Shown: positions 7,745 through 47,683, counted from the first letter of the stretch. The stretch: DNA of 64,000 nucleotides from an uncultured Methanosarcinales archaeon (GCA_964392465.1 CAYMPC010000001.1:5481-69480), one strand, 5' to 3'. The notes: generated by a model from the letters alone, not told the origin. A program made the numbers and translations.

Positions 7745-7812
7745 TGTCTTTACTTCAATTTAAATTAAAGCAAACCAAAACTATTAAAACTTTTTCTTAA
7801 TTCACATTACAA

Positions 7813-8736
7813 ATGATATGTGTAATAGCTTTAGTTGTTTTTGGAATTTTAGGGATATTTAGCGCAAGCTATAGGAAATTAGCAGCAAAAGCATTTGACT
7901 GCGTTTTCAGGAGAATTACATTAAGACCTTGCCAAGCAGGAGTAGACCAACAGCTCAGGACAGGTATTTTATCTTATTTTTCAAAAAAGAATGTAAAAGT
8001 AGCAAGGCTTATTGCTAAACATTTTGAGATAATATCATGGTTTTTCACTATTCTTCTTGTCTTATCTATAATATTTAGTATAAGAGGAATCTATTTTTAT
8101 GTTGTATATGGTAATTGTAATGGAGAAGACACTAACCAGTTTTGCATATTTGATGCTTTGCATCCTAACGAAGCAACATGTGAAGATCCAAACCTACCCC
8201 AAAACAAAAATTTTTCAATTACACCTTCTGTAGATGATGATCCTTTTTTTGGTCTTGAAGATGCGAAAGTGACAATAATTGAATTTGGATGCTATTCATG
8301 TCCCTATACAAAAAAAGCAGAACCTATTGTAAAAGAGATATTAAAAAATTATGAAGGTAAAATAAGGTTTGTTTATAGGGATTTTCATATTCCAACACAC
8401 CCTGGTTCGGATATAAGGGCAGTTGCGGCAGAATGTGCAAAGGAGCAAGGTAAATATTGGGAGTATCATGATCTTCTTTTTGAAAATCAAGAACAAAATT
8501 TGACAATTTTAGAATTAAAGCAAATGGCAAAAAGTCTTGGCTTAAATGACGGGTTTGATGTTTGTTTAGATAACATGAAATATTTAAATGAGACAATTAA
8601 AGATTTTGATGATGGAAAACTTGCAGGTGTATACGGAACACCAACATTTTTTATAAACAATCAAGTAGTTGTTGGTTCTAAACCATATGTTTATTTTAAA
8701 AATATTATTGAAAGCGAACTAAAAAAATCTCCATAA
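7813..8736 (+). CDS. membrane-anchored thioredoxin-fold thiol:disulfide oxidoreductase (DsbA-like domain with Cys-rich N-terminal membrane region)
   Basis: Two N-terminal TM helices with Cys pairs (CVFRRITLRPC, CNGEDTNQFC), then a DsbA-like domain with CxxC (FGCYSCPYT) and a cis-Pro region (YGTPTFFIN). Confidence 0.55.
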   Translation: MICVIALVVFGILGIFSASYRKLAAKAFDCVFRRITLRPCQAGVDQQLRTGILSYFSKKNVKVARLIAKHFEIISWFFTILLVLSIIFSIRGIYFYVVYGNCNGEDTNQFCIFDALHPNEATCEDPNLPQNKNFSITPSVDDDPFFGLEDAKVTIIEFGCYSCPYTKKAEPIVKEILKNYEGKIRFVYRDFHIPTHPGSDIRAVAAECAKEQGKYWEYHDLLFENQEQNLTILELKQMAKSLGLNDGFDVCLDNMKYLNETIKDFDDGKLAGVYGTPTFFINNQVVVGSKPYVYFKNIIESELKKSP

Positions 8737-10337: not shown

Positions 10338-11051
10338 CTATCTTATATTAAAAAGGGTCTTAACCATCTCAGAATTTTTTATACTAAAAACTTTCGCTCC
10401 ATTCGGAGCAACAAATTCTTCAATTATAGGTTTTTTAACTTTAAGGGCGTTCATGTAGACCCTTACACTATTAATAGATTTATTCAGCTTTAAAGCAATC
10501 TGATCATATGTTAATGGTTTACTCTCGTTAAAAAGTAACGTTAAAAGCTCTCTTTCTGGATTTGTTAATACATAACTATCTTTCTCACTAACTTCAACAA
10601 CTTTTTCAATACTTTTTTGATTTGAGGTATCAAGCTGTTTTTTAATCTCAGATTTTAGTTCTTCAATAACCTCTTCCTTCAAAGATTCTTTGCTTTTTTC
10701 AGCTTCCTTAAGTTTAAAAGTGAGATATTCTTCAAGTATTTTATGATAGCTCTCAAAATCTTCCCTTAATTTTTTCCTAAAAGAACGCCTTAATTCATTT
10801 ATTTCCTCCTTCAAACCAGTATTGCTACTATTAAGATACTCGATCCACGTAGAAATATTCTTTATTTGCTCTATAATTTCTCTTTTGTGCCTTATATTGC
10901 TCTCTTCTATTGATGAAGTATAAGAATGAAGATTTTTGCTGTATAAATGAAGATGATTTAACCTGTCTTGTTGTTTTATCATTTCTTTTTTCAAAGGAGA
11001 AAGATCTATGTTTGCTGCCTCTTTTTTGAAAAAACTATCTAAAACACCCAT
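10338..11051 (-). CDS. coiled-coil protein with C-terminal winged-HTH (TrmB/MarR-like)
   Basis: Long heptad-rich charged region, then LTNPERELLTLLFNESKPLTYDQIALKLNKSINSVRVYMNALKVKKPI. Start set to ATG 11051. The upstream TTTATAAT box fits better than the track's 11114. Confidence 0.5.
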   Translation of the reverse strand: MGVLDSFFKKEAANIDLSPLKKEMIKQQDRLNHLHLYSKNLHSYTSSIEESNIRHKREIIEQIKNISTWIEYLNSSNTGLKEEINELRRSFRKKLREDFESYHKILEEYLTFKLKEAEKSKESLKEEVIEELKSEIKKQLDTSNQKSIEKVVEVSEKDSYVLTNPERELLTLLFNESKPLTYDQIALKLNKSINSVRVYMNALKVKKPIIEEFVAPNGAKVFSIKNSEMVKTLFNIR

Positions 11052-18250: not shown

Positions 18251-18556
18251 GCGTAGAGCAGATATAAGCCACCTTTTGTAGGACTCAACATTTCTATTGG
18301 CAGTCCTCCTTAACATTCAACTATGCCCCATTATGGGTTGCACAAGCTAGGACTCACCGTTTCATCCTTCCCCTGAAAAATGTCAAAAAGTTATCTCAGC
18401 TTTGTCGCCAAAGCGTTCTTTTTTATCATCCTCTTTCAGGGAGGTCTCGTTTCTGAGTGGTTGCCATCCTTTTCAGGATCTTACTTCCGTAAGTAGCTAC
18501 AATAGTGGGTGGACTTTCCTCAGACTTACGCCCGGAAGTTAAGCTCTGCCCTACAA
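18251..18556 (-). ncRNA. rnpB: RNase P RNA (archaeal type-A-like)
   Basis: GC-rich island in AT-rich DNA. The minus strand reads ...GAGGAAAGUCCACC... (P4 5' strand) and ...ACAAAAGGUGGCUUAUA... (P4 3' strand). These pair with the same 1-nt bulge seen in bacterial P4. AGGAUGAAACGGUGAGUCC resembles the P10-P12 'GGGUGAAACGGUG' element. Terminal P1 pairing is present. Confidence 0.75.
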
Positions 18557-38311: not shown

Positions 38312-39190
38312 ATGACAAAAATAACAAAACCCCAACAATTAATACCTTTGGCCAACAAAGGAAATGATTTTTTACATGATCAAAGAGAGAGCTATAACAA
38401 TGCAACCTTATTAACAGACCCATGGAAAATTTACTTTTCTTTATCACATGAAGCAGCAATTTTTTTAGTTTCTTTTAGTAATCAATTATCTAGAGTAGGT
38501 CAAACAGGAGTACAGCTTTATGAAGATAGAACAGCATTATTAAAAAAACTTAAAGATGAAAGAGTTATAACTAAACCGCAACAAGGCGAATCCTTTGCAG
38601 ACCAATTAGAAGCAATAGGTCTTTACTATGATATGACTACTCCAAAGAATAGAGATTTAGAGGACATAGTATCTAAAGTTGTGGGATCTTTAACTTCTTC
38701 AAAAGAATATATTAATACTAATTTAAAAAATAATGAGGATATAAATAGCAGAAACTGGAACACAACAGTAGAGGAAGCAATCCAGGCATATACAGCGTTG
38801 CTATTTTTGAGAAATGCATATGAAACATCAGGCATTTTAAACTCAAAAGGTCATACAAACGGAATTAACTTGATAACCTATACTCCCAAAGGGCTAAAAG
38901 AGCTTTTTTATTCTATTTTTGAAAGAAATTATAGATTGAGTTTAGTTGACAAAGGTATTATACCACCAGAAGAAGATGGAAGAAAGGGATTTCCAAGAAT
39001 ATGGAATTTTTTAAGAGCCAGGGGGGTTGAACTTGAAAAAGAAGAAGAACTATTGAGATATGTTGATTCAATTATTCATCCTAACCGTACAGGATTTATA
39101 AGGAATATACCTCTTATTGGAGATTTTTTTACAGCAGAAGCATACAAACTTGTTTATGGAGTGAATAAATTCTCATTAAAGAAAAAATAA
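38312..39190 (+). CDS. hypothetical protein
   Basis: 292 aa with no signal peptide and no recognisable motif. Confidence 0.4.
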   Translation: MTKITKPQQLIPLANKGNDFLHDQRESYNNATLLTDPWKIYFSLSHEAAIFLVSFSNQLSRVGQTGVQLYEDRTALLKKLKDERVITKPQQGESFADQLEAIGLYYDMTTPKNRDLEDIVSKVVGSLTSSKEYINTNLKNNEDINSRNWNTTVEEAIQAYTALLFLRNAYETSGILNSKGHTNGINLITYTPKGLKELFYSIFERNYRLSLVDKGIIPPEEDGRKGFPRIWNFLRARGVELEKEEELLRYVDSIIHPNRTGFIRNIPLIGDFFTAEAYKLVYGVNKFSLKKK

Positions 39191-39195
39191 AAATT

Positions 39196-39639
39196 TTACT
39201 TCTTTTTCTTTTCTTCCTTTGTCTCTTTTGGAATCTCTTTATTAGTTATCTTTGGCAAAGGTACATGTGGAGGTAGTTGCATATCCCTTCCTAAGAATAA
39301 AGCTTCAATGCTACATCTTTCTAAAAGATTATTATATACTTCTTGAATTACTTCAGGAGGAAGTTTTTTTTCCTTTTCCCATTGTCCTAATGTTTCTTTT
39401 ACCTTTTCTTCAGTAGTAAGATATACTAGAGCGCCTTCCAGTAAAATACTTCCTACTTCAGGGTTAAAAGTAGTTGTATATGAAAATTTAAATTCTATTC
39501 CTTTTTGCTTTGATCTACCAACAACATTAGCTTCTTTTAAATTGTTTAATATTATGTTATTTTTTACCTCTATTTTACCTGTAGCTGCTTTACTTTTTTC
39601 TACATTAAATTTTGTAAAGTGAAATCCAATTATCGCCAT
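39196..39639 (-). CDS. hypothetical protein with Lys/Glu-rich tail
   Basis: 147 aa with no recognised motif. C-terminal KETKEEKKKK. Confidence 0.35.
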   Translation of the reverse strand: MAIIGFHFTKFNVEKSKAATGKIEVKNNIILNNLKEANVVGRSKQKGIEFKFSYTTTFNPEVGSILLEGALVYLTTEEKVKETLGQWEKEKKLPPEVIQEVYNNLLERCSIEALFLGRDMQLPPHVPLPKITNKEIPKETKEEKKKK

Positions 39640-39888: not shown

Positions 39889-40617
39889 ATGACTGATCAG
39901 AGCAAAGAGAAATTCAAAATATACAAAAATGTTTTTGATGAATTTACTTTATCTACTTTATTTAAATTAAGTTCTCAAGGTCATTTTGACGAGCTGATTA
40001 TTCCGATTAGGATAGGCAAAGAAGCTAATATATTCTTAGCAGATACAAAAGAAGGACATCATGTGATTGTTAAGATATATAGGTTAGCTTCCTGTAATTT
40101 TAACAAAATGTATTCTTACATTAGATCGGATCCGCGATTCATGAACCTTAAAAACAGGAGGAGATTAATTATTTTCAAATGGGTCCAGAGAGAATTCAGG
40201 AATCTTTTTATTGCAAGAGAAAAAATAAATGTCCCTCAGCCGATTGCTTTCTCAAATAATATTATCGTCATGGAATCTATAGGCCAGGATAGCCCTTCTC
40301 CTCCTTTGAAAGATAAGCCGCCGAAAAACCCAGAGGAATTTTCTTCTAAAATACTTCTTTTCATAAGAGAATTAGCCAAACTAGGAATAGTGCATGGTGA
40401 TTTATCAGAGTTTAATATTCTTAATAATAATGAAAAACCATATTTTATAGATTTTTCACAAGGGACAAGCATAGACGATTCAAACGCATTTGGGTATTTA
40501 AAAAGAGACTTAGAAAACATAAAAAGATTTTTTGAAAAATATAAAGTAAAAATTAATGCAGAGAAGGAATTTAAGGACATAACAAAAAGGCACGAAAAAA
40601 AATTATTTAGAAAATAA
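39889..40617 (+). CDS. rio1: RIO-type serine kinase (Rio1-like, no N-terminal wHTH)
   Basis: ATP-lysine region VIVKIYR, catalytic loop VHGDLSEFNIL, metal-binding IDFSQG. Confidence 0.8.
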   Translation: MTDQSKEKFKIYKNVFDEFTLSTLFKLSSQGHFDELIIPIRIGKEANIFLADTKEGHHVIVKIYRLASCNFNKMYSYIRSDPRFMNLKNRRRLIIFKWVQREFRNLFIAREKINVPQPIAFSNNIIVMESIGQDSPSPPLKDKPPKNPEEFSSKILLFIRELAKLGIVHGDLSEFNILNNNEKPYFIDFSQGTSIDDSNAFGYLKRDLENIKRFFEKYKVKINAEKEFKDITKRHEKKLFRK

Positions 40618-40674
40618 AAAAATAAAACAAAAAGAAACAATTAAAAAGAAACAGCTCTTTTTTAATTAAAAAAG

Positions 40675-40923
40675 GTGATCATTGTGGCAGACAAAAAAAA
40701 TTCAAATGATGAGCAGATAGGTTTTCATAAAGGTGCATTATCAACGCTTGCAAAAGAAAGACAAGAATTAATGAAATTAGTTAGTATAGTAGAGCAACTT
40801 ATGCAGATGCATGTTAAAGCACTGCAGGAGATGGGTGTTGATTTGCAGAAAATGGCAGAAGAAGCAGAAAAACAGCATAAGAAGCCAATAGAAGATTTAG
40901 TTGATAAAGAAAGTAGAAAATAA
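40675..40923 (+). CDS. small coiled-coil protein (hypothetical)
   Basis: 82 aa, helical. Starts at GTG, so start uncertain. Confidence 0.3.
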   Translation: MIIVADKKNSNDEQIGFHKGALSTLAKERQELMKLVSIVEQLMQMHVKALQEMGVDLQKMAEEAEKQHKKPIEDLVDKESRK

Positions 40924-40939
40924 GTTTTTTTGAATTATC

Positions 40940-41335
40940 ATGATTTCTTTTAATTTTTTTGGTCATCAAAACATACTATCGACACACAAGAACACAATAG
41001 AATTTACCAAAGAAAGTGAGGTAACTAAAAAGGGAGATTGTATTCTTGGTGTAAAATCAGATTTTAATCCCACAGACTTAAAAGAAGTATGTAAAAAAAA
41101 TAATAAAATAAAAATAAAAATTTTTGTTCAAGATTTAGTTGAAGAAATAATATGTTTTACAAATAAAGACTTTGATGATGCTCATGAAATTGTTATCAGA
41201 AAATCAGAATTTAATACAAAAAGAACCTTTGGGATAAAAGCAGATAAAGTTGCTCTAGATATAAATAGAAAAATAGTGGATAAATTGAAAAATCCTAATA
41301 TCAAAGGAAAAGTTGAGATTCTTGAAATAAAATGA
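40940..41335 (+). CDS. DUF371-like archaeal protein
   Basis: N-terminal GHQNILSTHKNTIEFTKE resembles the DUF371 signature. 131 aa. Stop overlaps the next gene start. Confidence 0.4.
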   Translation: MISFNFFGHQNILSTHKNTIEFTKESEVTKKGDCILGVKSDFNPTDLKEVCKKNNKIKIKIFVQDLVEEIICFTNKDFDDAHEIVIRKSEFNTKRTFGIKADKVALDINRKIVDKLKNPNIKGKVEILEIK

Positions 41336-41781
41336 AAAGAGCAATGAACAATAAAGAAGTAAAAGAAATTTTATTTGAATTACAAAACAGGTTTAACCTT
41401 TCTTTTACAAAAAAAGATCACTTTGACAAAGATGAAAATATTATTTTGATAAATAATGAACCTGCTTTTTTCTATTATGAAACTAAGTTAATTCCCACAC
41501 TCAAAATAATATTAAAATCCAACTTTCTTAAAAAAATAACAGTGGATATGGGAGCTGTAAAATTTGTTGTTTCTGGAGCCGATATAATGAGGCCAGGAAT
41601 AACAAAAATAGATGAAGGCATACAAAAAGAAGAGATAGTTTCTATTATTGACATGACACATTCTAAGCCATTGGCAATAGGGCTTGTATTGTTCTCTGCA
41701 GAGGAAATAAAAAACATGACCACTGGCAAGGTTATTAAAAATCTGCATTGGGTAGGAGATAAAATCTGGATTACTTACTAA
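41332..41781 (+). CDS. PUA-domain RNA-binding protein (MCT-1/Tma20-like)
   Basis: C-terminal PUA-like segment (GAVKFVVSGADIMRPGI...GLVLFSAEE). Confidence 0.5.
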   Translation: MKRAMNNKEVKEILFELQNRFNLSFTKKDHFDKDENIILINNEPAFFYYETKLIPTLKIILKSNFLKKITVDMGAVKFVVSGADIMRPGITKIDEGIQKEEIVSIIDMTHSKPLAIGLVLFSAEEIKNMTTGKVIKNLHWVGDKIWITY

Positions 41782-41836: not shown

Positions 41837-43390
41837 ATGGTAGATTTGACATTAGAGGAAACTCTAGGCGGCATCAGAGAATTTGAAGACCAATATAGGC
41901 AGATATATTTTTTACCTGTTTTTGCTAAATTAAGAGATCCAAAACAAAGAGAGATTTTTTTTGAAAGTATTCCTAAACCAAGTTCATTTGTTCCAGACTA
42001 TACCTATGAAGGAAAAAAATTTTCTCTGGAAGAAGCAGCATCCTTTTCTTTTCCAGGGTTAGAAGAAATAATAAGTAACACTTATAATTTTCTTCCAAAA
42101 ATAGAAGGAGCACTTATGAGCAATGTTTTAAGAAAGGCGCATCTAATTAACTTTACTATATTTACGATTTTAGATGAAGAGGTGTTTGGATCATTCAAGG
42201 ATCTAAAGAATAGAAAATATGAAAAAATACCCGCTTTTACTCATGCTTGGAAAACACAGCTTCTTTTACCTAAAAATGCACCTAATTGGGTTATTATTTA
42301 TGCTTTGTCACATGATTCTATTGAAGATTCACATAGACATAAAGCATTAAAAGAATGGATTAGCTTAAAAGAGGGCCAGCAACTTCCTATTTTTAGTAAG
42401 TTACTTCTTCTTGGAGCATTTCCTTTTCTTTCTCCTCTTTCTTTTGAGGAACCTCTTTCAATACCACTGTATGATAGCTTATTAGGAGATCAGACGAATC
42501 AGTTTTTAGACTTATTATACCTAGGGCAACCCAATAGCAGAGATAAGGCAAGATTGAAAAAAGGCCTAATGTTTATAACAAAAAAAGAATATCAGCCTTA
42601 TAGTACCTATCTCTCAGGTATAAAAAAGATTCGTAATGCGTATACACGTTATTGGACAATAATAACTAAGATGGATGACAGGTTTGATAATTCTCATTTT
42701 AATCCTGTTTTTTATAATAGTCATTTTCTTCAGACAGGTGAAAAATTATTAAAAGATGGAATAAAAAACGTTCAGCTTTTGAATGTAGCACAGGAAATTT
42801 ATTTAGGATTAGAAAACAGGCTTTCTGAAAAACCAATTTCTGAATTGGCAAGAGGAGAACTCTCTAAACTGGAATTTCTAAAAAGAAAGAATAGTCTTGC
42901 AGCTCTCACAAATAATAATATGAATTATTTTATGAATTATATTAGAGAGGTTTATGGCGAAAGGGTTATTTCTCTAAGATATAAATATTATTCCCAACAT
43001 ACAAAAGAAACCAAAACCGTAAATGAATGGCTAGATCTCTTAGAAAAAAGGATATATGATTATTATTCTGTTGGAGGGTTTTCCTCAAAAGATTCTGAAT
43101 TAGGGAATCCAAAAATTTTATTTAGTTTATCTGGAAGCTTAACATTGCTTGATAAATTATTTGAAGGAGAAATAGAAACTATTTTTGGGAGGTTAAATAC
43201 TTATAATGCACTATTATTATATAAATATGCAGCAATCACAAAAGTATTTTCTTGTTTATATCTTTCCCATAATCCTTTTGTAAACGGAAGGCTTGTTATA
43301 AGAGGGACAGAAGTATTAGGGCTTGATACTTTAGGAACTTATGATCAAAACCTGAGAACATATGTACTTGAAGAAAGTTTAATTAATTAA
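41837..43390 (+). CDS. large hypothetical protein (orphan)
   Basis: 517 aa, cytoplasmic, no recognised motif. Confidence 0.45.
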   Translation: MVDLTLEETLGGIREFEDQYRQIYFLPVFAKLRDPKQREIFFESIPKPSSFVPDYTYEGKKFSLEEAASFSFPGLEEIISNTYNFLPKIEGALMSNVLRKAHLINFTIFTILDEEVFGSFKDLKNRKYEKIPAFTHAWKTQLLLPKNAPNWVIIYALSHDSIEDSHRHKALKEWISLKEGQQLPIFSKLLLLGAFPFLSPLSFEEPLSIPLYDSLLGDQTNQFLDLLYLGQPNSRDKARLKKGLMFITKKEYQPYSTYLSGIKKIRNAYTRYWTIITKMDDRFDNSHFNPVFYNSHFLQTGEKLLKDGIKNVQLLNVAQEIYLGLENRLSEKPISELARGELSKLEFLKRKNSLAALTNNNMNYFMNYIREVYGERVISLRYKYYSQHTKETKTVNEWLDLLEKRIYDYYSVGGFSSKDSELGNPKILFSLSGSLTLLDKLFEGEIETIFGRLNTYNALLLYKYAAITKVFSCLYLSHNPFVNGRLVIRGTEVLGLDTLGTYDQNLRTYVLEESLIN

Positions 43391-43437
43391 ACTAATTTAC
43401 TAAAAATCCCGAAAAATAAAAATTATAAAAAATTAAA

Positions 43438-44802
43438 ATGAAAAACCTTGAACAAATGACTATAAGAGAACAACAGCGCTTTTTTGATAGACAAACCCCT
43501 AATAACTTAATTAAGGCAGGACTTGTTTCTTCTTTTCCTACTCTATTAGATATTCTTGGTTTTTCTTCACAAGATAAAAAAAGGATATGGGAAGCTGTTT
43601 TAGAAGACACAGGTATTGCTAATGGAGATTATCCTTTTTATTCTCCAATGCCTATTGAGACTTTAGCTGAATCTTCTTTTTTAACTCCTACTATAGGTGA
43701 TAATTTAAGGAGAAGTATTAGAGAAAAATACAAAGGAATAGGCAGAGAACTAGCTTATTTAAATTATAAAATTGGTTCTACTATAAATTCAAGTATACCT
43801 TCTTACTATGTTTTTGTTTCAAATGATTTAGATTTACTAAAAGCACTATTCTCAATCCAAGAGTATCACTTCGGAGAGTTAAACATACCCAAATTAGAAA
43901 AAAAAATAGATGAAAACGACCCTAGAAACAAAACACATTTGATAAAAGGAACACAAGCTTATGATTTATATCATAGATTAAGGGGAGACACCTCAATTCC
44001 TGAAACATCTCTTGAAAAATATTTGAGAGATTATCCACTAGATACAGTTATTGTTGTTACGCCAGAGGCTGCTTTTTCAGGAGGTATACCTCTCCAAGTA
44101 TATAGAAGAAAGTCGCCAATGAGTATAGCAGACAAATTCGGATATTCTATTATAGCTTATTTGTTAAATATTGCATATTCTGTCTCATTTCAAAGGCAAA
44201 AACCACCAGAAACAAGGATAAGTAAATATTCAACCTATAAAAAATGTGGAGTAAAAGATATACCAGGTTTAGCTACTATCTCTCCTTATTTTTCAACTTT
44301 TGGAGTATCAATAGAAAGTAGTAATCTAAGTTCCCTTTTAGGGATAAGAAATAAAGAAACCATCTCTGAAACAGGAGAAGTCCATTGGGATGTTAATTTT
44401 CTCAACCCAAAAGAGATAGAGCCGACATTAGGTATTTCTCCTCAAGGAATAGGAAGAATTGAAGTACATAGTTTAAGTGATATTTCACATTACTTTAGAA
44501 TGGAGCTTTTAGGGCCTACATCAAGACCAAATTTTAAAACAACGAGGAGAAGAGAAACAGAAGAGGCCCACCCAATAAAGTCAAAAAAGAAAGCAGTAGA
44601 AAAAGGATTAAAATTTGTTTCAGATAGAGTAAATAACATTTTTATGCCAGGTATAAATCTTTCTTCATACCCAGGATCTTATTATTTAGTTAATCCTTCA
44701 GGGATACCAACACCTAAATTTGGCTCATTAGTACAAACCCATGATACCAGCAGGTTAGATGATGTTATTACTTTATATAATCCCTTCCCATGGCAGCAGT
44801 AA
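43438..44802 (+). CDS. large hypothetical protein (orphan)
   Basis: 454 aa, cytoplasmic, no recognised motif. Same strand as the preceding orphan, 47 nt downstream. Confidence 0.45.
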   Translation: MKNLEQMTIREQQRFFDRQTPNNLIKAGLVSSFPTLLDILGFSSQDKKRIWEAVLEDTGIANGDYPFYSPMPIETLAESSFLTPTIGDNLRRSIREKYKGIGRELAYLNYKIGSTINSSIPSYYVFVSNDLDLLKALFSIQEYHFGELNIPKLEKKIDENDPRNKTHLIKGTQAYDLYHRLRGDTSIPETSLEKYLRDYPLDTVIVVTPEAAFSGGIPLQVYRRKSPMSIADKFGYSIIAYLLNIAYSVSFQRQKPPETRISKYSTYKKCGVKDIPGLATISPYFSTFGVSIESSNLSSLLGIRNKETISETGEVHWDVNFLNPKEIEPTLGISPQGIGRIEVHSLSDISHYFRMELLGPTSRPNFKTTRRRETEEAHPIKSKKKAVEKGLKFVSDRVNNIFMPGINLSSYPGSYYLVNPSGIPTPKFGSLVQTHDTSRLDDVITLYNPFPWQQ

Positions 44803-44810
44803 ACCTATCT

Positions 44811-45257
44811 TTATTTAGTTCTTCTCTCTTTTGGCACATAATTATACAGTTTTTTATTTACTATTCTTCCGCATCCCAAAAAATCAGAATTATTTTTAAT
44901 CAAAACAAAACCATTTAGCACGGAATCAATTTCAAAATCCTCTCCTTTCATCCATTTTTCAGCTTCTTCAGCGTTTAAGTCTAATATGTTTTTTTTTGCT
45001 ATATTTCCAATTAACTGAGAGCCTTCTATGCTTAATCTTATTTCACCATTATAAATTTCTCCAAAATAAAGACCTAGGGAATTTATTCTTAATTCATCAA
45101 TATCTATTTTTGAAAACTCATTATTCAAAATGAAAAGCCTGCTTTTTGGATTCATAAAAAAGATGTAATCTTTTTGAAACTCAGCTCCAAATTGTTCCTT
45201 AATCATTTTAAGAACATTTTTCTTTTCTTTTGAGTTTAATATTTTTAAGTTTTGCAT
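44811..45257 (-). CDS. putative Nip7-like PUA protein
   Basis: 148 aa. The C-terminal FLGCGRIVNKKLYNYVPKERR weakly resembles Nip7/UPF0113 PUA C-termini. Confidence 0.3.
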   Translation of the reverse strand: MQNLKILNSKEKKNVLKMIKEQFGAEFQKDYIFFMNPKSRLFILNNEFSKIDIDELRINSLGLYFGEIYNGEIRLSIEGSQLIGNIAKKNILDLNAEEAEKWMKGEDFEIDSVLNGFVLIKNNSDFLGCGRIVNKKLYNYVPKERRTK

Positions 45258-45306
45258 TTTACATATATTTTAAAAACATAAGATATATATAATTATATAA
45301 TCTGAC

Positions 45307-45930
45307 ATGAAAAATCATTTTATCTTTTTAATTTTGTTGTTTATCCTTATTTTTTCTCCTAGCATTCTAGCTTCAAACTTACAATATGGTGAGATTAAAT
45401 TCACAGTGATAAATTCTCCTCCAATAGTTAAGTCAATTGCTTTTTCTACAGAAAAGCCCTACTCTGATACAACACTAAGGTGTTTTCCTGAGATATATGA
45501 CGAAAGCCCTAATGATGTTTCAATAGAATACCTATGGTATATCAATGGGGAAAGAAAAGAAAATAATAAAAAAGAGATATCAGGATTTAAAGAATCAGAT
45601 TTAGTCAGGTGTGAAATTCTTCTTATAGATATTCACGGAGAAAAAGGAGATACAAAATCAGCAGAAATCAAAATTCTAGAAACCCCTATACAAGTCAAAA
45701 TAATAAAGCATTTAGTAAACCTAGTTGACAAAAAAGCATCTATCCAAGAAGTAAAAGAAAGCATAGAGATGCCCGCAATAACAGGGAGTGTTATTGGTGG
45801 AAGCAATAATCCTACAGTGAGCATCCTAATTTCTATTATACTCTTCTTGACATTATTAATAGGGTTAAATTCATTTATAGTTATAACAAAATTAAGAAAA
45901 AAACTCAAATACCCCAAACAGGATTTTTAG
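45307..45930 (+). CDS. secreted protein with C-terminal TM anchor (hypothetical)
   Basis: Signal peptide and a C-terminal hydrophobic helix followed by a basic tail. Confidence 0.4.
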   Translation: MKNHFIFLILLFILIFSPSILASNLQYGEIKFTVINSPPIVKSIAFSTEKPYSDTTLRCFPEIYDESPNDVSIEYLWYINGERKENNKKEISGFKESDLVRCEILLIDIHGEKGDTKSAEIKILETPIQVKIIKHLVNLVDKKASIQEVKESIEMPAITGSVIGGSNNPTVSILISIILFLTLLIGLNSFIVITKLRKKLKYPKQDF

Positions 45931-47683
45931 CTCTCATTATTTCTGCAATTGTTTTCAAAACATCAATCTCTCCCTGAGAAAGGTATTTTGTCAATTTTTT
46001 CATCGCCCTAAAATCTTCTTCAGGAATATAGCTGTATAATATATCTCCTTCATTAATCTGCCTGCCTACAGTAACATGATCCAAAGAAATTGCAACTTGC
46101 TTTCCTTTTGTCACGTTTTGCAGATGCTCTTTTTCATGTTGTATATCTTTAACAGTTGTTATAGAAATTCCATTTTTCATTAATTGGCTACCTGATTTAA
46201 TCTTCCCCTCAAGAATATCTACACCCACAATAGCAGGATTGCTCTGCCTGAAAACAAAATTGGGAATTAATTGTAATTTACAGGGTCTAGTAAGGTTATC
46301 AAGTTCCTTTGCTTCCATTAATCTTTTCTGCTGTTCTTTCCAGGAATCATATTCTTCTATTATCTTGTAAATAATATCGCTTGTAATTATTTTTACTCTT
46401 TCAGAACTTGATACATCAGTATCTCTTTCAACATTAAATCCAAGAAGTACTGCCTCTAATGGATCTTTTTCATAATTTGATTCAGCATCTGTCATGTCTT
46501 TTTTTGTGATTCGTCCAATACTTGCTTTTCTTAATGGAATGTTTTTTTCTTTTAATAAAAAAGTCAAAGCTTCTAAAGAACCTAGCGTATCGGCTTTGAT
46601 AATTATTCCCTTTTCCTCTGTTTTAATAATTACTTCTTGGACTTCTTTTTGTATTTCAAAAATCACTTTCTGTTTTATATCTTCAGAAAAACTTTGGATA
46701 GGCATGCCAGCAATTACATTATCTATATCAGGAGCACATATTTTAACTCCTGTTGCAGCAACAACAAAATCAACATTTTTGAATTGAGTTTTTTTATCTC
46801 GCATCTCTCTTAAAGGAACAGGACACAATAATGCCTTAACCCTAGTCTCAATTGGTTTTTCAATGCCTCCTATTATTAATTTATCATTTTTCTTAAGTAT
46901 TCCGTCATATATAATTACATCAAGGGTTTTCCCAAGTCCTTGTGTTTCTTTAATTTCAAGCACAGTTCCCTTTGCATTCCCTAAAGTATGTAATCTTAAA
47001 GATGTTTCAAGAAATTTTTGTGCTAATCCAATTAACACCATTAATAGTTCTGGAATACCATCTCCATTTACAGCAGAAACAGGAATTATGGCAACTTGTT
47101 TAGTATAATCTTCCACTCTGTCAAATCTTTCAGAATTTAATCCTAATTCAGACAGCTTTCCAACTATCTCATAAATTTTTGTATCTAATTTTTCAATCAC
47201 AAAAGGATCCTGGTTATTGATATTTTTTATAAGGTTTTTATCCAGCTGTTTATATCCGGGAATAAGATCAATTTTATTAGCAGCAATAACAAAAGGAGTT
47301 TTAAAATTCTTTAAGATTTCTATACTCTCTATTGTTTGTGGTTTTAAACCTTCATTTACATCTATTACAAGAATAGCAATGTCTGCAATGCTTCCCCCTC
47401 TTTTCCTTAATGTTGTAAAAGCAGCATGACCTGGAGTGTCAATAAAAAGCAAGCCAGGAATATTGAACTTCATCTTGTCTCCAAGAAGGGAGCCACATAT
47501 TTTTTTAACAGTTTCTAAAGGGATAATGGAGGCACCAATAGCTTGAGTAATTCCTCCTGCTTCTCCTATCTGGGTAGCACTACCTCTAATCTTATCTAAT
47601 AATTTTGTTTTTCCATGATCAACATGCCCTAAAGTTGCAATTACTATCTGCCTTAATTCGCAGTTTTGTATATTGTTTTGCAT
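45905..47683 (-). CDS. infB: translation initiation factor aIF5B (IF2 homolog)
   Basis: G1 GHVDHGKT, DTPGH, NKID, then the beta-barrel and C-terminal domains. 592 aa. Confidence 0.9.
   Translation of the reverse strand: MQNNIQNCELRQIVIATLGHVDHGKTKLLDKIRGSATQIGEAGGITQAIGASIIPLETVKKICGSLLGDKMKFNIPGLLFIDTPGHAAFTTLRKRGGSIADIAILVIDVNEGLKPQTIESIEILKNFKTPFVIAANKIDLIPGYKQLDKNLIKNINNQDPFVIEKLDTKIYEIVGKLSELGLNSERFDRVEDYTKQVAIIPVSAVNGDGIPELLMVLIGLAQKFLETSLRLHTLGNAKGTVLEIKETQGLGKTLDVIIYDGILKKNDKLIIGGIEKPIETRVKALLCPVPLREMRDKKTQFKNVDFVVAATGVKICAPDIDNVIAGMPIQSFSEDIKQKVIFEIQKEVQEVIIKTEEKGIIIKADTLGSLEALTFLLKEKNIPLRKASIGRITKKDMTDAESNYEKDPLEAVLLGFNVERDTDVSSSERVKIITSDIIYKIIEEYDSWKEQQKRLMEAKELDNLTRPCKLQLIPNFVFRQSNPAIVGVDILEGKIKSGSQLMKNGISITTVKDIQHEKEHLQNVTKGKQVAISLDHVTVGRQINEGDILYSYIPEEDFRAMKKLTKYLSQGEIDVLKTIAEIMRAKNPVWGI

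Follow-up and report, generated by a model that had tools for sequence, protein, structure and literature searches.

What could two large, adjacent genes that escape every curated family model be doing amid the translation genes of an archaeon? The question is raised by a stretch of 64,000 nt from an uncultured Methanosarcinales archaeon (GCA_964392465.1 CAYMPC010000001.1:5481-69480; hereafter the window, with positions counted from its first letter), in which two genes, here termed A and B, follow one another on the same strand. A preliminary description had singled them out as orphans and as candidates for undescribed machinery. By profile comparison A instead belongs, remotely but with firm statistical support, to the RelA/SpoT homologue (RSH) HD hydrolase superfamily, and B putatively descends from an RSH synthetase. 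Because A has an RSH HD domain and B is probably synthetase-derived, the pair would represent an already known enzyme system that has diverged, rather than wholly new machinery.

41837..43390, plus strand: gene A, 517 amino acids (aa), ATG start; RSH-type HD pyrophosphohydrolase-domain protein (by profile comparison) with lineage-specific N- and C-terminal regions
43391..43437, no strand: A-B spacer, 47 nt, A/T-rich, without an oligo-T run
43438..44802, plus strand: gene B, 454 aa, ATG start; putative highly diverged RSH synthetase-like (nucleotidyltransferase-fold) partner

Both open reading frames (ORFs) and the gap between them were exactly where the preliminary description had put them. 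Different frames and intervening stop codons keep A and B apart as two ORFs, as is also the case in the related loci L001 and L100, and since their homologues (A 41-59%, B 43% identity) keep the same order in syntenic contigs, we regard both as real genes. With a BLASTP E of 0.31 between them, the two are not paralogues. An archaeal RNase P RNA, aIF5B, RIO1 and EF1-beta mark the window as archaeal; its G+C content is ~30% throughout, with no compositional break at the pair, which matches its flanks. The reported lack of transmembrane segments stood: no convincing segment was seen, the maximal 19-residue hydropathy being 1.61 for A (in a poorly conserved insertion) and 1.45 for B. The size of the proteins had been called unusual, which is overstated, as 13 stop-to-stop ORFs in the window have at least 400 aa, among which A ranks 8th and B 10th.

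Relatives were few. A word-indexed search of 5.8 billion clusters yielded only two homologues of A (58% and 41% identity) and one of B (43%); scanning for motifs turned up no relative in 185,579 GTDB species genomes, and a motif scan of metagenomes found one partial locus, identical to P0003. An exhaustive HMMER search, for which the query was a profile of the concatenated A and B of the window aligned with separate rows for P0003 and P0005, retrieved 22 proteins at E <= 1e-3 among 1.84 billion representatives, 14 in the A family and 8 in the B family. With P0002 added, the A alignment comprised 15 sequences (22-59% identity to A), and the B alignment 8 (32-44% identity). Direct scans, including phmmer, gave no match for A or B in Pfam, NCBIfam, PADLOC, PHROGs or PDB sequences. 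Judged by these searches, A and B are tiny, lineage-restricted families that lack curated-model recognition; on lineage restriction the earlier description was right.

The hydrolase signature of protein A

42128..42724, plus strand: HD hydrolase core of A (residues 98-296), split by a variable insertion; coordinates checked by translation
42212..42244, plus strand: R126...P-x-F-T-H136 block, counterpart of RSH 'QxRxsGePYixHP', with the first metal-binding His
42311..42328, plus strand: HDSIED (H159 D160 ... E163 D164), HD metal ligands and RSH-specific ED catalytic dyad; checked by translation
42362..42622, plus strand: variable insertion (~residues 176-262) between the HD..ED and DR..N motifs, far longer in some relatives
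42668..42691, plus strand: KMDDRFDN (K278, D281, R282, N285), RSH 'K(L)ADRxxN', with the last metal-binding Asp and the substrate-binding Asn
42734..43387, plus strand: C-terminal region of A (residues 300-517), with family-specific motifs KDxxKN, TNxNMN, GGF and LYKYAA

The statement that A has no recognisable motif proved wrong, for the textbook H..HD..ED..DR..N signature is present. Its full pattern, R...PxxxH...HDxxED...KxxDRxxN, is the hallmark of the HD domain of Rel, SpoT, MESH1 and the small alarmone hydrolases (SAHs), in which H...HD...D is the metal tetrad of the HD superfamily at large and the Glu-Asp dyad of HDxxED is an RSH-specific catalytic feature. The tetrad of A aligned with its counterparts in Rel, SpoT and MESH1, its 'ALSHDSIEDS' to 'ALLHDv(v/i)EDT' (Rel, SpoT, MESH1, SAH), and the R126/H136 block to 'PYI(T/N)HP' of SpoT, Rel and MESH1. 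These are the positions that the family keeps: among the 15 A sequences D281 and N285 were invariant, and R126, H136, H159, D160, E163, D164, K278 and R282 were at least 90% conserved. Beyond the core, D307, K310 and N361 of the C-terminal region were also invariant and G433 nearly so, and the insertion was poorly conserved and varied greatly in length.

Statistical support came from profiles. For comparison, authentic sequences were made into profiles (SpoT and RelA of E. coli; 80 gammaproteobacterial SpoTs), and another profile came from 15 diverse long RSHs and stand-alone HD proteins taken from plasmid records. When the 15-member A profile was run against the PDB with hmmsearch, all of the top 11 matches were RSH hydrolases (E 0.0016-0.24), among them M. 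tuberculosis Rel 5xnx, MESH1 3nr1/5vxa, SAH 7qoe/7qoc, Lmo0812 4yf1, fly Mesh1 3nqw and SpoT 7qpr. The best value, 0.0016, went to M. tuberculosis Rel and human MESH1, with alignments spanning PYITHP/LLHDxxED and KLADRxHN. By hhalign, three A sequences reached a score of 24 against long RSH (P = 0.04), and the 15 sequences reached 57 against an independent long RSH profile (P = 1.8e-6). The 15 sequences matched the RSH+SAH HD profile at 96% probability (P = 4.2e-9), rising to 97% (P = 5.4e-11) with the insertion removed; the removal improved the HD alignment, and a second, collinear match on DRxxN ('IKLADRxHNMR') accompanied the first, as it also did with HMMER. The reversed control against the same profile gave P = 0.6. 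The A-RSH score thus rose with profile depth, from 24 to 57 to 70, and the aligned segments were A122-167 with SpoT 35-80 and A273-296 with SpoT 131-154.

One of the 15 A members matched PF01966 on its own (E = 0.019). The C-terminal region (300-517) matched nothing in the libraries and had low confidence in the AlphaFold2 model, and a Foldseek search with that low-confidence model of A returned nothing significant, with SAH 7p1y and SpoT 7qpr among the noise-level matches. Because every residue that defines the RSH hydrolase active site is kept, A most likely works as an enzyme of the Mn2+ type that hydrolyses 3'-(pyro)phosphates.

The probable synthetase ancestry of protein B

44101..44139, plus strand: YRRKSPMSIADKF (B 222-234), match to RSH Syn1 'GRxKxxxSIxxKM'; best S1 site at family level
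44248..44283, plus strand: GVKDIPGLATIS (B 271-282), match to the RSH Syn2 'DIxGxRI' strand with the catalytic Asp; best S2 site; Arg not conserved
44371..44472, plus strand: TGEVHWD (312-318) and GRIEVHS (339-345), with invariant T312-G313-E314-H316, G339, E342 and H344
44659..44703, plus strand: LSSYPGSYYLVNPSG (B 408-422), match to the RSH linker/TGS-start block 'dLFpDEiYVFTPkG'

B was compared with RSHs block by block. We made position-specific scoring matrices (PSSMs) of six conserved RSH synthetase/TGS-start blocks from our RSH alignment and sought their best collinear chain on the B alignment, averaging the score over the six full-length B members and taking permuted PSSM columns as the null. 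The chain scored 22.9 against a null of 9.6 ± 3.0 (z = 4.4-4.5), a value reached in 2 of 2000 and 5 of 5000 permutations; ten control families (the A family and nine real neighbour families) gave z from -0.7 to 2.0. The signal was carried by YRRKSPMSIADKF (Syn1), GVKDIPGLATIS (Syn2) and LSSYPGSYYLVNPSG (TGS start), the last being the strongest single block (p = 0.003) and also the top default hhalign match of B. On full-length SpoT the best match of B fell in the synthetase/TGS-start region and that of A in the hydrolase, mirroring the canonical domain order.

In RSHs, Syn1 is the R/K block that binds the ATP phosphates, and GYxSxH is the acceptor block that stacks the guanine. The Syn1 match of B reads Y-R-R-K-S-P-x-S-I-A-D-K, where K225, P227, S229 and K233 are invariant and R223, R224 and I230 have one exception each. 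The Syn2 match ('VGVxDIxGxGxI'; block p = 0.05) has invariant D274 and G277 and lacks the Arg. Six invariant residues of B (K225, P227, S229, K233, D274, G277) thus sit on matched synthetase blocks; invariant E342 ('GRIExH') is also counted among the residues that follow the RSH synthetase order, by position only. TGEVHWD and GRIEVHS lie where the GYxSxH and EVQIRT strands of RSHs are expected and may be their counterparts, the similarity to them being not significant. An early register drawn by eye ('GTQAY' as Syn1 and 'SIADKFGYS' as Syn2) was dropped; the preferred register puts the invariant residues on motif positions, and some ambiguity remains.

A simpler pattern extended beyond B itself. 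The regular expression R.K...S...K occurred in 7 of the 210 ORFs of at least 100 aa in all loci, and each of the seven was the gene directly after A; the carriers include two mutually unalignable families, the B type and the L105/L107 type, with the motif at the same relative position. We conclude that B probably derives from an RSH synthetase domain, an ancestry that these block matches support moderately, and that it most likely keeps the linker into a TGS domain alongside the synthetase remnant.

A fixed slot, a variable second gene and what the pair may do

39889..41781, plus strand: upstream block of RIO1 kinase, ~80-aa ORF, DUF371 and DUF1947+PUA genes (Pfam), always before A
41332..41781, plus strand: DUF1947+PUA protein, directly upstream of A
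44811..47683, minus strand: downstream convergent block, from the Nip7-like PUA protein to aIF5B (Pfam)
44811..45257, minus strand: Nip7-like (Methyltranf_PUA) PUA-like protein, downstream of B
45905..47683, minus strand: aIF5B, downstream, with a 207-aa plus-strand ORF between it and the Nip7-like gene

Pfam assignments of the neighbours bore out the reported placement of the pair between a PUA protein and a Nip7-like/aIF5B block. The order RIO1, ~80-aa ORF, DUF371, PUA, A recurs in the window, L001, L100, L101/L102, L105, L106 and L107, with A in the syntenic loci just 25-44% identical to A of the window. The downstream block follows the slot of A and its second gene in L001, L101, L103, L105, L107 and the P0008 contig, with the Nip7-like gene on the opposite strand and usually then aIF5B; in all, the same housekeeping slot was found in seven independent contigs. 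Second genes of the B type come after A in the window (spacer of 47 nt), L001 (12 nt) and L100 (3 nt), and in the P0002 contig the spacer after A is 2 nt. Given such short spacers A and B are probably co-transcribed, as had been proposed from the gap in the window. Every B-family contig with upstream sequence has a same-strand gene fragment there, which in L103 ends like A and in L104 has the GGF motif of A.

The second gene is less constant than A. The preliminary description had staked its proposal on the presence of the pair in related genomes, and this held for A, which always occupied the slot, and failed for B, which is replaced in L105, L106 and L107 and missing in L101/L102. This makes A the conserved core and the second gene its highly variable companion. 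The replacing genes encode 492 aa in L105, 524 aa in L107 and at least 328 aa in L106. None was detected by the B hidden Markov model (HMM), and none was significant against the RSH profile. The top Pfam match of the L106 gene was RelA_SpoT (PF04607; E = 0.0032, 18 bits), through SRLKDSDKIGQK...IYDLMGGRIVV. Since the L101/L102 lineage has A without a second gene, A can presumably function alone. The joint, two-component working of A and B that had been suggested is thus plausible where both are present and does not extend to that lineage. A canonical RSH gene turned up neither in the window nor in those related loci that could be read.

Several observations concern these variants themselves. 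The second genes of L105 (7662-9140) and L107 (7946-9520) match each other at E = 1e-35, have no Pfam match and carry the motifs GRVKHSDSANIK / TRIKNSLSEDFK, D..GITI and (I/M)EI...YK; they look like another, separate RelA/SpoT synthetase-like family invisible to annotation. L107 also has an extra 57-aa ORF between A and the second gene (7776-7949) and, a few genes downstream, a separate NTP_transf_2/Polbeta nucleotidyltransferase gene (10390-10908). A long form of A (622-658 aa), with extra HD insertions and a C-terminal extension, occurs in L101/L102 (8001-9917), P0015 and P0020, and in L101/L102 the Nip7-like gene comes directly after it.

We suggest that the pair is a split, highly diverged RSH module, with A as hydrolase and B as synthetase-like partner, a reading that in our judgement stands about an even chance of being correct. 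The activities and substrates of both proteins are predicted here from their motifs. A would be a Mn2+-type HD pyrophosphohydrolase of the SpoT/Rel/MESH1/SAH kind. B would keep the R-x-K-x-x-x-S-I-x-x-K phosphate-binding block, the D-x-x-G strand and an invariant Glu further on, and would no longer have G-Y-x-S-x-H, the block on which the guanine acceptor stacks. B might then transfer pyrophosphate from ATP to a 3'-OH acceptor, which A would remove again. Loss of the guanine-stacking block suggests either that this acceptor is something other than GDP or GTP, perhaps another nucleotide or an RNA or tRNA 3' end, or alternatively that B only regulates A. The fixed position of the pair behind RIO1-DUF371-PUA and beside the Nip7-like gene and aIF5B suggests a translation-linked target, with which the neighbourhood is at least compatible. 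A more specific version, which we consider unlikely, is a vertically inherited, archaeon-specific 'make-and-break' RSH system, pairing the hydrolase with a synthetase-like protein without guanine block, acting on a non-guanosine substrate (a tRNA or rRNA 3' end or an adenosine-type alarmone) and regulating translation as a housekeeping function in archaea with small genomes. To our knowledge, alarmone signalling of the RelA/SpoT kind has never been shown in archaea; if true, this version would provide the first archaeal alarmone-like or RNA-pyrophosphorylation circuit.

A number of results weigh against the split-module reading. Single A members fall below the Pfam HD/HD_4 thresholds, which is why A and B look orphan, and neither the core of A nor an insertion-deleted construct matched HD_4. 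AlphaFold2 models had a predicted local distance difference test (pLDDT) of 46 for A (3-sequence alignment; helical, only residues 150-280 moderately confident) and 32 for B (2-sequence alignment), and so gave no structural confirmation. In B the GYxSxH block (S3) was not detectable, its best score lying below the null mean, and EVQIRT and AHWxYK (S4a, S4b) did not rise above the null. B had no match in Pfam or NCBIfam, and its profile found nothing in the PDB at E <= 10; by hhalign, P for B was 0.03-0.13 whether the comparison was with SpoT alone, with the SpoT profile from gammaproteobacteria or with a multi-phylum RSH profile, and its score stayed flat with deeper profiles, unlike that of A, so that we do not count it as evidence. 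B can be placed on the synthetase domain in two registers, both weakly plausible, the motifs of B were noticed by eye ahead of the statistical testing, and a motif-chain test of individual B members was not significant except for P0005. Among the loci, HMM methods failed to align the three types of second gene (B, L105/L107 and L106) with one another, the RelA_SpoT match in L106 is under the 27-bit curated cutoff and its PDB search gave noise only, and L101/L102 keep A (638 aa) without any second gene.

Some of these same results would be expected if only A were related to RSHs. A would then be a stand-alone MESH1/SAH-like hydrolase (for example an NADPH or nucleotide 3'-phosphatase, or a scavenger of host or bacterial alarmones), and B an unrelated, lineage-specific partner or adaptor whose blocks arose by chance or convergence. 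That A occurs alone in L101/L102, that the second gene is not conserved between lineages, that B fails every standard homology test, and that no cognate synthetase accompanies enzymes of the MESH1 type (preprint 10.1101/2021.04.30.441581) all fit this explanation. It leaves out of account, however, that the block-chain statistic of B lies outside those of ten control families, that the invariant residues of B coincide with the matched blocks, that the Syn1 expression is exclusive to second genes across two unalignable families, and that the second gene of L106 matches Pfam RelA_SpoT; we therefore hold it somewhat unlikely. Should A and B both be catalytically dead, serving as scaffolds or regulators in ribosome biogenesis or translation initiation, the conserved neighbourhood, the large conserved non-catalytic regions (A 300-517 and B 1-215) and the absence of several catalytic blocks from B would follow readily. 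Yet the most conserved positions of A are its metal-binding and catalytic residues, the pattern of an active enzyme, and conservation of gene order among related genomes is by itself no proof of a functional link, so that we consider this very improbable.

Just as improbable in our view is a toxin-antitoxin or defence module, in which B would be a toxic pyrophosphokinase of nucleotides or the tRNA CCA end and A its type IV hydrolase antitoxin. The architecture is that of the toxic small alarmone synthetase (toxSAS)-SAH pair FaRel-ATfaRel, likewise two adjacent genes for a synthetase-like protein and an HD hydrolase able to undo its product (PMC7229694); SAHs can reverse tRNA pyrophosphorylation (PMC7229694; preprint 10.1101/2021.04.30.441581), and the very fast divergence of the second gene between lineages is as in conflict systems. 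The pair differs in its fixed slot in a housekeeping translation block down to 25% identity, being neither mobile nor patchy; it has no defence or mobile context, a G+C content equal to that of its flanks and no PADLOC or PHROGs match. Its proteins are far bigger, two to three times the size of SAH/toxSAS, the hydrolase gene comes first, and A persists where the second gene is absent.

The split-module reading also has to be set beside other known RSH proteins. SAH/MESH1 proteins (Pfam HD_4; human MESH1 3nr1, the PaSpo and PbcSpo SAHs, Lmo0812) share with A the R...P-x-x-x-H, HDxxED and K-x-x-DRxxN motifs in the same order and, like A, are single-function hydrolases encoded apart from the synthetase; they are ~180-200 aa long, compared with the 517 aa of A, which has in addition the HD insertion of ~90 aa, a 95-aa N-terminal region and a conserved C-terminal region of 220 aa. 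Long RSHs (Rel, SpoT, RelA) have the same order of hydrolase (A), synthetase-like blocks and 'LFPDEIYVFTPKG'-like TGS-start block (B), in one HD-SYNTH-TGS-... polypeptide where A and B are split over two genes; both A and B differ from them in large lineage-specific regions, and in B the GYxSxH, EVQIRT and AHWxYK blocks are unrecognisable and no complete TGS or later domain is detectable. RelA/SpoT homologues are annotated in 42% of Woesearchaeota and 21% of Pacearchaeota, with an inferred acquisition from Bacteria (PMC8407392). Those canonical DPANN proteins resemble A and B as RSH-superfamily proteins in small-genome archaea, but they are found by standard annotation, whereas A and B escape both Pfam and NCBIfam and lie in a vertically conserved archaeal gene block. 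RSH hydrolases, RSH synthetases and split SAS/SAH arrangements are already known; what is new, as far as the profiles and synteny indicate, is a pair that annotation does not see, in which an enlarged HD protein stands with a synthetase-like partner that evolves fast, both locked in an archaeal block of translation genes.

RSH enzymes make (pp)pApp and pyrophosphorylate tRNA CCA ends, SAH/MESH1 enzymes reverse these reactions, and MESH1 also dephosphorylates NADPH (PMC7229694; preprint 10.1101/2021.04.30.441581). A and B offer two clonable genes with which alarmone-like or tRNA-pyrophosphorylation chemistry might be probed in some archaea, and they show that the RSH superfamily reaches further in sequence space than present family models.

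Other genes of the block

The ORF between RIO1 and DUF371 (40675-40923, plus strand; 82 aa) belongs to no Pfam family, and counterparts of 78-81 aa stand in the same place in L001, L100, L101, L105, L106 and L107; because every syntenic locus has one, it appears to be a conserved small protein tied to RIO1/DUF371. The DUF371 and DUF1947+PUA genes that follow (40940-41781, plus strand) overlap by 4 nt (41332-41335), likewise in all related loci except L106, and this overlap suggests translational coupling.

Two further ORFs without a Pfam family lie between CDC48 and RIO1, of 292 aa (38312-39190, plus strand) and 147 aa (39196-39639, minus strand); at the corresponding positions L001 has genes of 320 and 142 aa, likened to them by size and position alone. 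ARAGORN found no tRNA gene anywhere in the 64-kb window, and the archaeal RNase P RNA lies at 18253-18554 on the minus strand (Rfam RF00373, 155.6 bits). Downstream of the pair, the 207-aa ORF (45307-45930, plus strand) is hydrophobic at both ends, with a leader at the N terminus and a segment at the C terminus; at the 3' end it shares 26 nt with the 3' end of the convergent aIF5B gene, and L001 has an ORF of 212 aa in this position.

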